A stretch of 64,000 nt of DNA from Candidatus Shapirobacteria bacterium. Its GTDB lineage: Bacteria > Patescibacteriota > Microgenomatia > UBA12405. Below the pieces are notes generated by a model. It made no database searches, had not been told where the DNA came from, and saw only the letters and a list, made by a program, of their open reading frames with translations. The stretch is taken from positions 366,819 to 430,818 of the forward strand of contig JBAZYN010000001.1 of NCBI GenBank assembly GCA_041659325.1, in the 5' to 3' direction. The position numbers and the translations under genes are program-made. Shown in pieces: positions 55,089 through 64,000 of this stretch; the stretch's first letter is position 1; each line of letters begins with the position of its first letter.

Positions 55089-55250
55089 CCTCCCGTCTTG
55101 CCCTCCGTAGCCTTGGCGCAGGAGGGTCATTGCGCCTGTCCGCCTTTGGCGGAAGGAGCAAAGCGACGTGGCAATCCCTGCCTGCCGGCAGGCATGGTTT
55201 ACGGCAAGAAATACAAGACCGCCCCTCTCCCCATATTCATCCACAATCTT
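55089..55250. repeat. GC-rich structured intergenic element with the perfect palindrome CCTGCCTGCCGGCAGGCA and several hairpins (REP-like)
   Basis: Strongly GC-rich in an AT-rich genome. Contains GGCGCA-N10-TGCGCC, CCGCC-TTT-GGCGG and CCCTGCCTGCCGGCAGGCATGG. Lies between convergent genes. Related copies occur at 60.37, 62.2 and 63.93 kb. Confidence 0.6.
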
Positions 55251-59897: not shown

Positions 59898-60311
59898 TTA
59901 TTTAATCAGGCTTAAATTTCCATTTACTACAATTGGGCTCATTGCCACTATCTCTGATTTATAGAACTCAATTTCTGGAATCGGGTTGTACAGAAAAATC
60001 TTCTTTCCTAAAATAAAACTATATCCCATTTCAATTAAAGTATTTCCACCTATATAGTTTTTAATGCCTTTTTTATCTAAATTTAAAACTAAGATTGCGT
60101 CAACGTCTTTTAAGCTTTCGCATAATTCAATCAACCCGTTATTATCATTCTTATCTTTTATTGTTAATCTGGTTATTTCTTCAATATCTTTTCCGGCGTA
60201 CCCTTTTGTGAAGCTTGAAATTACAACCTCGTGATTTATTTTTTCCAAACCAGATTTCAACTTCAACATTTCATCAGAAAAAACCATGCTACCAAGGATT
60301 GCTATTTTCAT
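59898..60311 (-). CDS. Nucleoside 2-deoxyribosyltransferase-like (SLOG superfamily) small protein
   Basis: IGGNTLIEMGYSFILGKKIF resembles the NDT 'G(T/S)xxExGxAxxxGKP' motif. Confidence 0.4.
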   Translation of the reverse strand: MKIAILGSMVFSDEMLKLKSGLEKINHEVVISSFTKGYAGKDIEEITRLTIKDKNDNNGLIELCESLKDVDAILVLNLDKKGIKNYIGGNTLIEMGYSFILGKKIFLYNPIPEIEFYKSEIVAMSPIVVNGNLSLIK

Positions 60312-60404
60312 TTTTCTTGTTGAGAGTATACCGAAAAATTCAAACTGTATTCATCAAATTGTAACACCCTGCCTGCCGGTTTACCCGCCGGGGTGGGCCT
60401 CTAA
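60305..60404. repeat. Copy A of a roughly 100-nt duplicated 5' leader/promoter element (about 90% identical to copy B)
   Basis: Direct alignment by eye with 62128..62226. Includes the ATGAAAAT start of the downstream minus-strand gene and a CCCTGCCTGCCGG GC-rich core. Confidence 0.7.
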
Positions 60405-60532
60405 GGGAGACTCGATTAAGAAATTATTCCAAGTTACAGATAGCGAAAACAAAATTTCAACAGTGCGGACCATTTTTTAATTTTTTGCGCGTGATTTCCG
60501 GATATCAATACACAATGAGATATAATTAACGC

Positions 60533-61153
60533 ATGGACAAAAGGGAAACAACACAATCCCCCTCCGACGAAACCAGCACATTTGATAATAAACAATATAG
60601 TGTTATCAAGACAGGAGTTCCTCTTACAGTAGACAAAGGCCTATATGGTAAAGGTTATAATTATACTGTCGATTTTGATAGCTCACCTACTCTTCAAGCA
60701 CTTTACCTTCAAGCGGAAACATTTTTTCGCACCGATAGTCTTTCTCCTCCACAAACTGTTCTTAATAAGTTAAAAGGAATCGTAGCCACAGCCTTTCCAC
60801 ACCAAGGCATTAATAAAGTTATTGACTTCGAAAGACAACTACGTAAGTCCAAAAATCCAGCTTCCCTGGAAGACTACGCCAAAAATGGTATCGGTAATTG
60901 TTCTCAAACCACGCTGACCTTAATTTTATTGTTCGAAAAACTTAGAGAAAAGGGGATGGCTCAAGGCGCTTTTACCTTAGAAGAAGCTGATTGGGAGAAC
61001 GAATTTACTGGCGGCGGACACACTTGGGCAAAATACTTACCGGAACAAGGAGAACCTGTCGTCGTGGATGTTGTTCGGGACTATGTAGGGAACGAAGAAG
61101 GTCATAAATCCATTTTGGAAACAGTAAGGTGGGAAACTCTTAGTGGCTACTAA
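60533..61153 (+). CDS. Cytoplasmic transglutaminase/papain-like (Cys-His-Asp) domain protein
   Basis: GIGNCSQTTLTLILLF (Cys), GGGHTWAKY (His) and VVVDVVRDY (Asp). No signal peptide. GC content visibly higher than neighbouring genes. Confidence 0.4.
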   Translation: MDKRETTQSPSDETSTFDNKQYSVIKTGVPLTVDKGLYGKGYNYTVDFDSSPTLQALYLQAETFFRTDSLSPPQTVLNKLKGIVATAFPHQGINKVIDFERQLRKSKNPASLEDYAKNGIGNCSQTTLTLILLFEKLREKGMAQGAFTLEEADWENEFTGGGHTWAKYLPEQGEPVVVDVVRDYVGNEEGHKSILETVRWETLSGY

Positions 61154-61300
61154 CAAAACATTTTAGTTTACCGTCGAGCCGAGCGCGGCACGCGCCACAT
61201 CAACCTGCTTCAATTTGCAGAAACTGTTAAGCAGTATGGCTACAGACTGTTCTATCCTTATAACTGAATTGTCTATATATCCCCAATGCTAACTTTACTT

Positions 61301-62134
61301 TTATTTTATTTGATTTAGCTTTCCAATATCTTTTTGTTGTACCATTAAAGTCTCGTCCATGGGCTTAAGAATAATTTTATTCAAAATAATGTTATTTTTT
61401 ATATCGACGTTTACAAGTAATAAATCTCCATTATATTTTCCAGCTATTATATAGCTTTCGTCATTTATAGTACTAATTGGAAATTTTGTTTGTGACTGGA
61501 TATCAGAGTAACCAATTCCATATGAGAGTAAAGTCCATATAATAATAAAAGCGGGATAGAAAACATAGTTAATTCTCAGGAACTTAGTAATAAAAGAAAT
61601 ATCAACATTTATATCTTTTTTCTTTTCTTTATTTGCTAGGTTCGCTTTAAAAATTTTTTCCGAGTACAAATTATATTTTGATAGGTAACTTTTTTCATTT
61701 GGATATTGAAAAAGTGGAATTACAAAAATATATATTATTAAAAGTAAAAAAATGAATAATATCAATGCCGATTTAAGTACGGGTAGGAGAATAGAAATAG
61801 ATAAAATTAGATAGGTAAAAATTATAAATACGGCCAAGACTGCAACAAATGCAAATATTAGATTTTTTTTAGTTAAAGGCTTAAATTCTTCGTCTTCTTT
61901 TTTATTTGGAGACTTTGTTGAGAGAAAAAATGAAAACATTAAGACAGCTAATACAAATAGCACCAACAAGGATGACAGAATTGCTGTTTCTGTGTTAACT
62001 TCTACGAAAATTACTGGTAAATTAAGAAAAGTATATTTACCCGTGAGATAGCAAAAAGCAGCAATATATCCAACTACAGGAATACTGATTATGGACAAAG
62101 TCTGACTTGAGTTCAAATCTGGAATAATTTTCAT
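61301..62134 (-). CDS. Polytopic membrane protein with a C-terminal soluble domain, unknown function
   Basis: About 6 TM helices. Starts ATGAAAAT inside repeat copy B. Confidence 0.5.
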   Translation of the reverse strand: MKIIPDLNSSQTLSIISIPVVGYIAAFCYLTGKYTFLNLPVIFVEVNTETAILSSLLVLFVLAVLMFSFFLSTKSPNKKEDEEFKPLTKKNLIFAFVAVLAVFIIFTYLILSISILLPVLKSALILFIFLLLIIYIFVIPLFQYPNEKSYLSKYNLYSEKIFKANLANKEKKKDINVDISFITKFLRINYVFYPAFIIIWTLLSYGIGYSDIQSQTKFPISTINDESYIIAGKYNGDLLLVNVDIKNNIILNKIILKPMDETLMVQQKDIGKLNQIK

Positions 62135-62226
62135 TTTTCTTGTTGATAGTATACCGAAAAATTCAAACTGTATTCATAAAACTATAACACCCACCCTGCC
62201 CGCTTACTCGCCGGGGAGGGCCTCTA
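62128..62226. repeat. Copy B of the duplicated 5' leader/promoter element
   Basis: See copy A. Confidence 0.7.
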
Positions 62227-62245
62227 AAGCCGGTAAGATACTAAT

Positions 62246-62920
62246 TTATACAGGAATATTGGCTATCATTTTGTCGATATATCCAATTGCTTGAACGGGC
62301 GTATCGACGAAATAAATCATATCATCTAGTACCTGTCGGATGAACCCCTCTTGTTTCATTCTCTTGAATTGATTTTTTAGACCATCGTAAAAGCCATCTG
62401 TATTTAAGACCACAATTGGTTTGTTATGCTGCTTTTGTTTTTTCAGCTCTAGTAGTTCAGTTACTTCATCTATTGATCCGATTCCACCGACCAGAAGCAC
62501 AAACGCATCACTTTTTTCAGCCATTAGAACTTTTCTTTCGGGCAGAGTTTTGGTTATATATACTTCACTTAAATCCGTGCTAACAGCATCTTTAATTATT
62601 TCAGTAGCTATCCCGATTAGCCTACCTTTTGATTCTCATACTGATGAGGCAAGAAATTTCATTAAACCGATGTCTGAACCACCATAGATAAGGCCGTACC
62701 CATGACTAACAACTACTTTTGCCAAATCTTGAGCATCCTTAATATATTTTTCTTCAACGTCATTTACGGAACAAAAAACACAGATATTTTTCCCCACGGG
62801 TAGATTATAGCGTAAAAACTTTTCTAATACCCATAAACAACATCTCCCTCTTTGGCCCCGGCAACCGAAATCTTCTTCCACTTGTCCGGGGTATAGTTTC
62901 TTAGACCAATCAGTAAACAA
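62246..62920 (-). pseudogene. LOG-family (cytokinin-riboside-5'-phosphate phosphoribohydrolase / TIGR00730-like, SLOG superfamily) gene interrupted by one in-frame TGA
   Basis: The N-terminal ORF has ICVFCSV...GLIYGGSDIGLMK. The C-terminal ORF has PERKVLMAEKSDAFVLLVGGIGSIDE. Hand translation shows both are in the same frame, separated by a TGA (..LASSV*ESKGRLIGIATE..). Confidence 0.6.
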
Positions 62921-63021
62921 TCTTTTTTGAAAATAAAGGCAACCGGAACATCTTTGTCATTGCCGACTTTCTTAAGAATATGGCTAGTATCCATATATAA
63001 TATTCATCTAAATATAAAGTG

Positions 63022-63093
63022 TTGCGGGACTAGGGCTCGAACCTAGAATATCCACTTCCAAAGAGTGGTGTCCTACCATTAGACGATCCCGCA
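63022..63093 (-). tRNA. tRNA-Gln (anticodon TTG) with a U1-A72 pair
   Basis: Reverse complement folds as TGCGGGA..loop CTTTGGA..CTAGG-TTCGAGC-CCTAG..TCCCGCA. Confidence 0.75.
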
Positions 63094-63912: not shown

Positions 63913-63924
63913 ATTAATTTATTT

Positions 63925-64000
63925 CAATGTGCCCCCTGCCTGCCGGCAGGCAGGAATTTCACTTACCCTGCCGTAGCATTGGCAAAGGCGGGCCACATCG
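63925..64000. repeat. GC-rich palindromic repeat (perfect 20-mer CCTGCCTGCCGGCAGGCAGG plus CCCTGCCGTAGCATTGGCAAAGGCGGG), truncated by the window end
   Basis: Same family as the element at 55089..55250. Confidence 0.6.

Follow-up and report, generated by a model that had tools for sequence, protein, structure and literature searches.

In a stretch of 64,000 nucleotides (nt) from the uncultured bacterium Candidatus Shapirobacteria (contig JBAZYN010000001.1), we identified a direct repeat of 101 nt, the two copies of which run into the start codons of two unrelated genes on the minus strand. This stretch, hereafter referred to as the window, covers 64 kb of the 573,898-nt source contig and has a GC content of 40%. 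With moderate confidence, we read the repeat as a case of promoter capture or promoter reuse, in which copy A would be an ordinary divergent intergenic region and copy B a 101-nt secondary copy that provides the gene behind it with a promoter, a leader, and a start. Copy A (60304–60404, minus strand), the presumed source, lies in the divergent region between an NDT-like open reading frame (ORF), which it precedes, and a plus-strand gene encoding a protein of 206 amino acids (aa). Copy B (62127–62227, minus strand), presumably the derived one, follows the stop codon of a LOG-like ORF at a distance of 19 nt and is joined to the start of a gene for a protein with multiple transmembrane segments (multi-TM gene).

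The initial annotation of this region, which was made by reading the sequence, had described a segment of about 100 nt that is duplicated with about 90% identity in front of two unrelated minus-strand genes, and this description was borne out. A repeat search returned the pair as the one long direct repeat of the window, ungapped, with 91 of 101 positions identical (90%) and a spacing of 1823 nt. The repeat spans positions −93 to +8 relative to the start codon, and both copies terminate in ATGAAAAT, which is the start of the NDT-like gene for copy A and of the multi-TM gene for copy B. Its borders are sharp, as the 150 nt outside either end aligned no better than shuffled sequences (427 and 453 of 500 shuffles, respectively, scored as high). 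Likewise, the first 150 nt into each of the two genes aligned no better than shuffles, and the encoded proteins have different homologue sets. That the two segments represent one homologous sequence in front of two unrelated genes is thereby supported. A 41-nt core and a 19-nt GC-rich core were each found exactly twice in the window at up to three mismatches, compared to 0.00 and 0.04 matches in shuffled sequences. The further copies that the initial annotation had proposed to search for did not appear within the 64 kb, neither by pattern matching nor by nhmmer with one profile for the complete element and one for either half (E > 1 for any third copy). Two core patterns, GTATACCGAAAAATTCAAACTG and TTAGAGGCCCNCCCCGGCGNGTAA, gave no matches in GTDB genomes, JGI metagenomes, and IMG/VR; these collections do not hold the source contig and are therefore silent on the genome-wide copy number.

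The ten differences between the copies (60324, 60355, 60359, 60361, 60370, 60371, 60378, 60380, 60385, and 60394 in copy A; substitutions G/T, C/A, T/C, G/A, T/A, G/C, G/C, T/C, C/T, and T/A) are distributed unevenly, with one in the gene-proximal 51 nt and nine in the distal 50 nt (binomial P = 0.0099). Identity is accordingly 98% (50/51) in the proximal half and about 82% (41/50) in the distal half. The proximal half is AT-rich and comprises the start codon and two further codons, an A-rich leader region of 13 nt, the hexamer TATACT, and upstream AT-rich DNA; it extends over 60304–60354 in copy A (TATACT at 60325–60330) and over 62127–62177 in copy B (TATACT at 62148–62153), both on the minus strand, where it reads ...ATGAATACAGTTTGAATTTTTCGGTATACT(C/A)TCAACAAGAAAAATGAAAAT. 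The distal half (60355–60404 in copy A, 62178–62227 in copy B, minus strand) has a GC content of about 70%, compared to 40% in the window. In copy A, it holds the exact 13-mer CCCTGCCTGCCGG (60367–60379), the left arm of a palindrome family that is present elsewhere in the window; in copy B, this 13-mer is lost. Neutral drift at the rate seen in the GC-rich half of copy B predicts about nine differences in the proximal 51 nt, of which only one was observed, and this speaks for constraint acting on the proximal half of either copy. A constrained half next to a drifting one would mark the likely functional promoter.

Relatives of the locus genes in the protein collections are distant (74–78% identity), and we used their genomic surroundings to trace the parts of both copies. 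The most informative relative, L047, carries an orthologue of the 206-aa gene (75% aa identity) and is homologous to positions 60367–61203 of the window (80.7% nt identity). The homologous region includes the gene and all of the DNA upstream of it, as well as the part of copy A that is rich in GC. The latter was identical at 32 of 33 positions over CCCTGCCTGCCGGTTTACCCGCC.G.GGTGGGC, and comparison of the GC-rich halves with L047 yielded a shuffle z-score of 14 for copy A and of 3.3 for copy B. Homology stops exactly at 60367, inside the repeat, and the sequences to the left are unrelated; neither a multi-TM gene nor the proximal half is found beside the 206-aa orthologue, and a tRNA-Gln(ctg) is located 73 nt past its 3′ end. 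Given this orthology of its GC-rich half, copy A represents an ordinary divergent intergenic region and not a foreign element. The non-coding region next to it (60405–60532, compared to L047:560–686) shows a degree of conservation similar to that of the gene (approximately 80% or more), including a TATAAT box 6 nt before the ATG. For the NDT-like gene, homology to the orthologue in L002 (78% aa identity) extends from its stop codon through the 11 nt that precede the ATG, and ATGAAAAT is common to L002 and copy A. Further upstream, L002 lacks the element and instead has a tRNA-Gln(ttg), the end of which is 10 nt away from the ATG. In L005 and L011, the homology of the multi-TM orthologues (73–74% aa and 80–82% nt identity) is limited to the ORF, from 2–4 nt before the ATG to 15–60 nt past the stop codon. 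Their starts, ATGAAATT and ATGAAATA in L005 and L011, both begin with ATGAAAT. In L011, the gene lies directly 3′ of a tRNA-Gln(ctg) with a gap of about 2 nt; in L005, it is flanked by genes for a Y-family polymerase and an SRAP protein, beside type IV secretion genes. In L002 and L011, the respective gene thus follows a tRNA-Gln by no more than 10 nt, which leaves no room for a promoter of its own. As the nucleotide identity of the multi-TM orthologues exceeds the protein identity, relaxed or diversifying selection on this gene is suggested.

According to these comparisons, copy A is a mosaic in which three pieces can be told apart: the ~11 nt directly in front of the ATG, native to the NDT-like gene; an AT-rich stretch of about 44 nt (60323–60366) with TATACT as the putative −10 box, specific to this genome; and a GC-rich module from the upstream region of the 206-aa gene. 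Copy B holds all three pieces in the same order and on both sides of the junction at 60367, and would therefore have been copied from an A-like template after this junction existed. Its junction with the multi-TM gene probably lies within ATGAAA, a motif native to the start regions of both genes, and the position of the proximal border in this motif points to a microhomology-mediated event. Two mechanisms appear most likely: a duplication mediated by microhomology, or a templated insertion for which the donor was located 1.8 kb away on the same strand. A duplication could have proceeded via unequal recombination to a tandem duplication that was trimmed later, and our data do not distinguish it from a short templated insertion. 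By either route, a horizontally mobile gene without a promoter would have come under a resident one and received both a short A-rich leader and a start codon. Since then, the two copies would have stayed almost identical over the proximal 51 nt, with the GC-rich half of copy B drifting as a passenger. We infer the direction of copying and the mechanism from features that are directly visible in the alignments, i.e., the repeat, its borders, the orthology of the parts of copy A, and the uneven differences. The alternative raised in the initial annotation, a recombination scar left by an insertion, holds insofar as a duplication did occur; a plain insertion does not account for what lies between the copies, as in L047, too, the 206-aa gene is contiguous with the GC-rich half of copy A.

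The hexamers TATACT and TTGAAT are present in the shared segment as initially described. TATACT ends 13 nt before the ATG in both copies and is followed by CTCAACAAGAAAA. A −10 hexamer (at least 5/6 matches, within 45 nt of the start) was found for 29 of 60 window genes, compared to 21% of coding-sequence controls. These hexamers end 5–34 nt before the ATG, and many are preceded by TGn. In nine window genes the distance is only 5–8 nt, which implies leaderless or nearly leaderless transcripts; the 206-aa gene, with TATAAT 6 nt before its ATG, is one of them. Upstream regions in this genome generally lack a Shine–Dalgarno sequence, and the last bases before the ATG are A-rich; the element likewise has an A-rich leader and no Shine–Dalgarno site. 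If TATACT acts as a −10 box, only about 6 nt would be transcribed before the ATG, and the GC-rich core would therefore lie upstream of the transcription start. TTGAAT was rejected as a −35 box, as it is only 7 nt away from TATACT. The best −35 hexamers at a spacing of 17–18 nt from TATACT match at three of six positions. A terminator reading of the GC-rich half was also discarded, since no terminator-like site was called and no gene precedes copy A on the same strand; in copy B, this half could serve the LOG-like ORF as a terminator. Both copies further contain a four-codon mini-ORF, ATGAATACAGTTTGA (M N T V stop; 60336–60350 and 62159–62173, minus strand), in a fully conserved block 24 nt before the main ATG, which is probably due to chance.

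Several points weigh against promoter capture or reuse. A scan with the sigma-70 consensus detected no site within the element, because it has neither a good −35 box nor a TG extension. The proximal half is a putative promoter, with TATACT as its candidate −10 box and a predicted start site. The near-identity of the proximal halves could also reflect recent gene conversion instead of selection. Furthermore, the GC-rich half of copy B is further from copy A (~82%) than the orthologue in L047 is (97%), so either the duplication is old or the distal half of copy B is of separate origin. Finally, the case consists of two copies only, counted in 64 kb of a 574-kb contig.

Related cases are known from a survey of putative mobile promoters, or promoter reuse, which comprises more than 4000 families, mostly pairs that average 92% identity and usually lack a known mobile element (Matus-Garcia, Nijveen and van Passel, NAR 2012; commentary PMC3575422). 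Upstream sequences of non-homologous genes in one genome had to share no less than 80% identity along 50 nt or more, and the search was restricted to positions −150 to −50 in the complete genomes available in 2011 (PMC3575422). With 90% identity over 101 nt upstream of two non-homologous genes, our pair resembles these families as they are described there. In contrast to them, only 44 nt of the repeat fall within −150 to −50, which is below the 50-nt minimum, and the repeat reaches further, across the putative −10 box and the leader into the first 8 nt of the gene. The window also differs from the complete genomes named in the survey in that it belongs to a metagenome-assembled genome (MAG) of an uncultured Candidatus Shapirobacteria. 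The locus is a new instance of a known phenomenon, promoter reuse, and adds an example to it rather than opening a new one. For a reduced Patescibacteria genome, it would mean that a gene moving as a bare ORF can gain a resident promoter and start region by a local copy of 101 nt.

In the long-term evolution experiment with Escherichia coli, the Cit+ phenotype reportedly arose by an rnk-citT fusion, in which a promoter was captured at a duplication junction. Our locus would be similar to such experimental promoter capture in that a gene without a usable promoter is put behind a resident one by local duplication, here with a fusion at the short shared ATGAAA. In the laboratory cases, the duplicated segment persists in full, whereas at our locus only 101 nt are still duplicated, the copies have diverged by 10%, and the mechanism is a reconstruction. 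The activation of horizontally transferred genes by tandem duplication has been reported as well, and promoter capture by local duplication is well known from experimental evolution (PMC11111574, PMC6614815).

We consider it unlikely, though still plausible, that the repeat belongs to a dispersed family (a mobile promoter, REP- or MITE-like) with more copies in the other 90% of the genome. The 20-nt palindrome CCTGCCTGCCGGCAGGCAGG is complete at 63935–63954 and present with one mismatch at 55177–55196 (modules 63934–63955 and 55176–55197), and six matches with up to two mismatches were counted in comparison to 0.4 expected. Its left arm, CCCTGCCTGCCGG, is exact in copy A and in L047 (L047:494–533), where an insert of 19 nt splits the arms. 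Apart from this 13-mer, the GC-rich half of copy A shares further blocks with the GC-rich palindromic modules at 55176 and 63934 (z ~5). An independent Logan contig, L001, moreover terminates at 60369 within the GC-rich module. The two copies have no 31-mer in common at this spot, which is a hint of a further sequence containing the same 30-mer. A family of this kind would have counterparts in Correia elements, ERIC, and REP/REPIN, which the commentary on the survey names as small repeats bearing promoters (PMC3575422). Like them, the element is an intergenic repeat of about 100 nt that may supply a promoter, and the GC-rich half of copy A, which carries one palindrome arm, is related to palindromic GC-rich modules. 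Unlike them, it has no terminal inverted repeats (the only internal inverted repeat, 60305–60316/60333–60344, is not terminal), no target duplication, and two copies in 64 kb, and neither copy A nor copy B as a whole is palindromic. With unrelated flanks in addition, a MITE- or Correia-like element was rejected. Against a dispersed family also stand the lack of a third copy of either half in the 64 kb, the lack of matches to the two core patterns in GTDB genomes, JGI metagenomes, and IMG/VR, and the lack of significant similarity between copy B and the other GC-rich modules.

Somewhat more doubtful is the idea that the copies are junction repeats (att-like or Campbell-type) from the integration of a 1.7-kb segment with the 206-aa and multi-TM genes. 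The direct repeats do flank these two genes, and the locus lies 3′ of a tRNA-Gln, which each of its three genes also adjoins in relatives, like islands that grow by accretion; in addition, the multi-TM gene is located within a type IV secretion gene cluster in L005. L047, however, has the 206-aa gene and its upstream region in one uninterrupted stretch with the GC-rich half of copy A, and neither the multi-TM gene nor the proximal half is next to it. The change from 98% to 82% identity along the repeat is also unlike a short identical crossover core. Alignments of the element with four tRNA-Gln sequences were not significant; the best z-score of about 2 was obtained with one gap scheme for L002, and the tRNA-Gln of the window itself reached z ≤ 0.3. 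A decayed tRNA-Gln or att remnant, suggested by eye from a T-loop-like TTTGAAT and a CAACA after the acceptor stem, was rejected for the same reason (shuffle z ~0, at best ~2 against L002). A Pfam search of eight ORFs at 57.3–63.8 kb, among them most of the neighbouring ORFs, revealed no integrase, recombinase, or reverse transcriptase, and an NCBIfam search of a 243-aa ORF gave only a faint match to a MobA-like helix-turn-helix.

A structured 5′ untranslated region (UTR) or riboswitch-like leader common to two co-regulated genes, as initially proposed, is very unlikely. In its favour are the GC-rich core in a genome of 40% GC and a weak A-U hairpin, possible in both copies, in which pairing between UUUGAAUUUUUC and GAAAAAUGAAAA would cover the start codon. 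The Rfam search yielded no family at gathering score or with E ≤ 10 over the element; the sole overlap was the small RNA SpF39 (E = 4.3; 24.7 bits compared to a cutoff of 60), which is located mostly in coding sequence. Minimum free energies equalled those of dinucleotide shuffles on both strands (z −0.86 to +0.22). The covariation that the initial annotation had put forward as a check was not seen in the consensus fold of the two copies: the RNAalifold covariation term was 0 and none of 21 pairs was compensatory, which has little power with two sequences. The GC-rich half, i.e., the only part able to fold stably, is the less conserved one, and in copy A it belongs upstream of the oppositely oriented 206-aa gene. 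TATACT at 13 nt before the ATG furthermore implies a predicted leader of about 6 nt. Of the proposed co-regulated promoter with a structured 5′ UTR, we therefore retain the promoter-like half next to the genes, with TATACT at a spacing that other genes show, and drop the structured leader.

That the repeat is an artefact, i.e., a collapsed or chimeric repeat of the kind the MAG origin of the contig might suggest, is next to negligible, as L001 is 100% identical to 60369–63086 of the window including copy B and both its flanks, so the repeat is no artefact of this assembly, and as copies with ten differences and no common 31-mer are unlikely to be confused in a de Bruijn graph. Three further classes were rejected. 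Homology past the repeat, e.g., to a decayed LOG 3′ end upstream of copy A, was not significant. A template/variable repeat (TR/VR) pair of a diversity-generating retroelement does not fit, since the differences are not confined to adenines, no reverse transcriptase is found among the neighbours, and the repeat is mostly non-coding. The same applies to an integron attC site (core RYYYAAC ... GTTRRRY), as the AT-rich and GC-rich halves do not pair and GTTGAGA and GTTGATA do not fit GTTRRRY.

Regarding the genes of the locus, the NDT-like ORF downstream of copy A (59898–60311, minus strand) encodes 137 aa, and its family is named nucleoside 2-deoxyribosyltransferase by some sources; Pfam gave no direct match, and of 1662 homologues a few carry PF05014. 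The 206-aa ORF between the copies (60533–61153, plus strand) is of unknown family. The multi-TM ORF downstream of copy B (61301–62134, minus strand) encodes 277 aa and behaves as a single-gene module, which is found in other contexts in relatives. The LOG-like (Lysine_decarbox) frame (62246–62920, minus strand) is interrupted by an in-frame TGA at 62636–62638, and represents either a pseudogene or a sequencing error; recoding of the TGA is unlikely because the remaining window reads well in code 11. In addition to the NDT-like, multi-TM, and 206-aa genes, the row 3′ of the tRNA-Gln(ttg) (63021–63093, minus strand) contains a Nudix-like fragment (62824–62994) and the broken LOG gene, and the stretch 59898–63093 looks like a variable hot spot beside this tRNA. 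A broader scenario, to which we give little credence, is a module-shuffling region 3′ of tRNA-Gln in Patescibacteria, in which newcomers would push aside single-gene modules, which in relatives ride on the transcript of tRNA-Gln, and the displaced modules would then receive a portable promoter segment; the CCTGCCTGCCGGCAGGCAGG modules would serve as recombination junctions or be tiny mobile insertions.

The palindrome also occurs far outside this locus. We found CCTGCCTGCCGGCAGGCAGG exactly in 35 IMG/VR stretches (L012–L046, e.g., L032 and L018) with GC contents of 0.38–0.68, sometimes several times per contig, and two composition-matched control palindromes had no matches in IMG/VR. It is hence strongly over-represented in these unrelated contigs, and was seen inside tRNA genes there: in L036 (position 2284), it is located where a tRNA-Met predicted by ARAGORN has its variable loop; in L043 (position 515), a tRNA-like D-arm is split by it. 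Its flanks in IMG/VR contigs are often short direct repeats of each other. The palindrome could be a tiny mobile or convergently selected hairpin. A literature search for its sequence returned only unrelated zebrafish papers, and Rfam searches of the related GC-rich modules and L047 gave matches at chance level only. A second type of hairpin was observed at 55100–55127 and 63966–63993, where a 14-nt loop, GTAGCNTTGGCNNA, is conserved and the stems differ yet still pair (CCCTCC/GGAGGG and CCTGCC/GGCGGG, respectively). Just 5′ of a tRNA-Leu, the module at 63913–64000, which is cut by the end of the window and for which Rfam returned no match, folds well beyond shuffled sequences (z ~−3.5).

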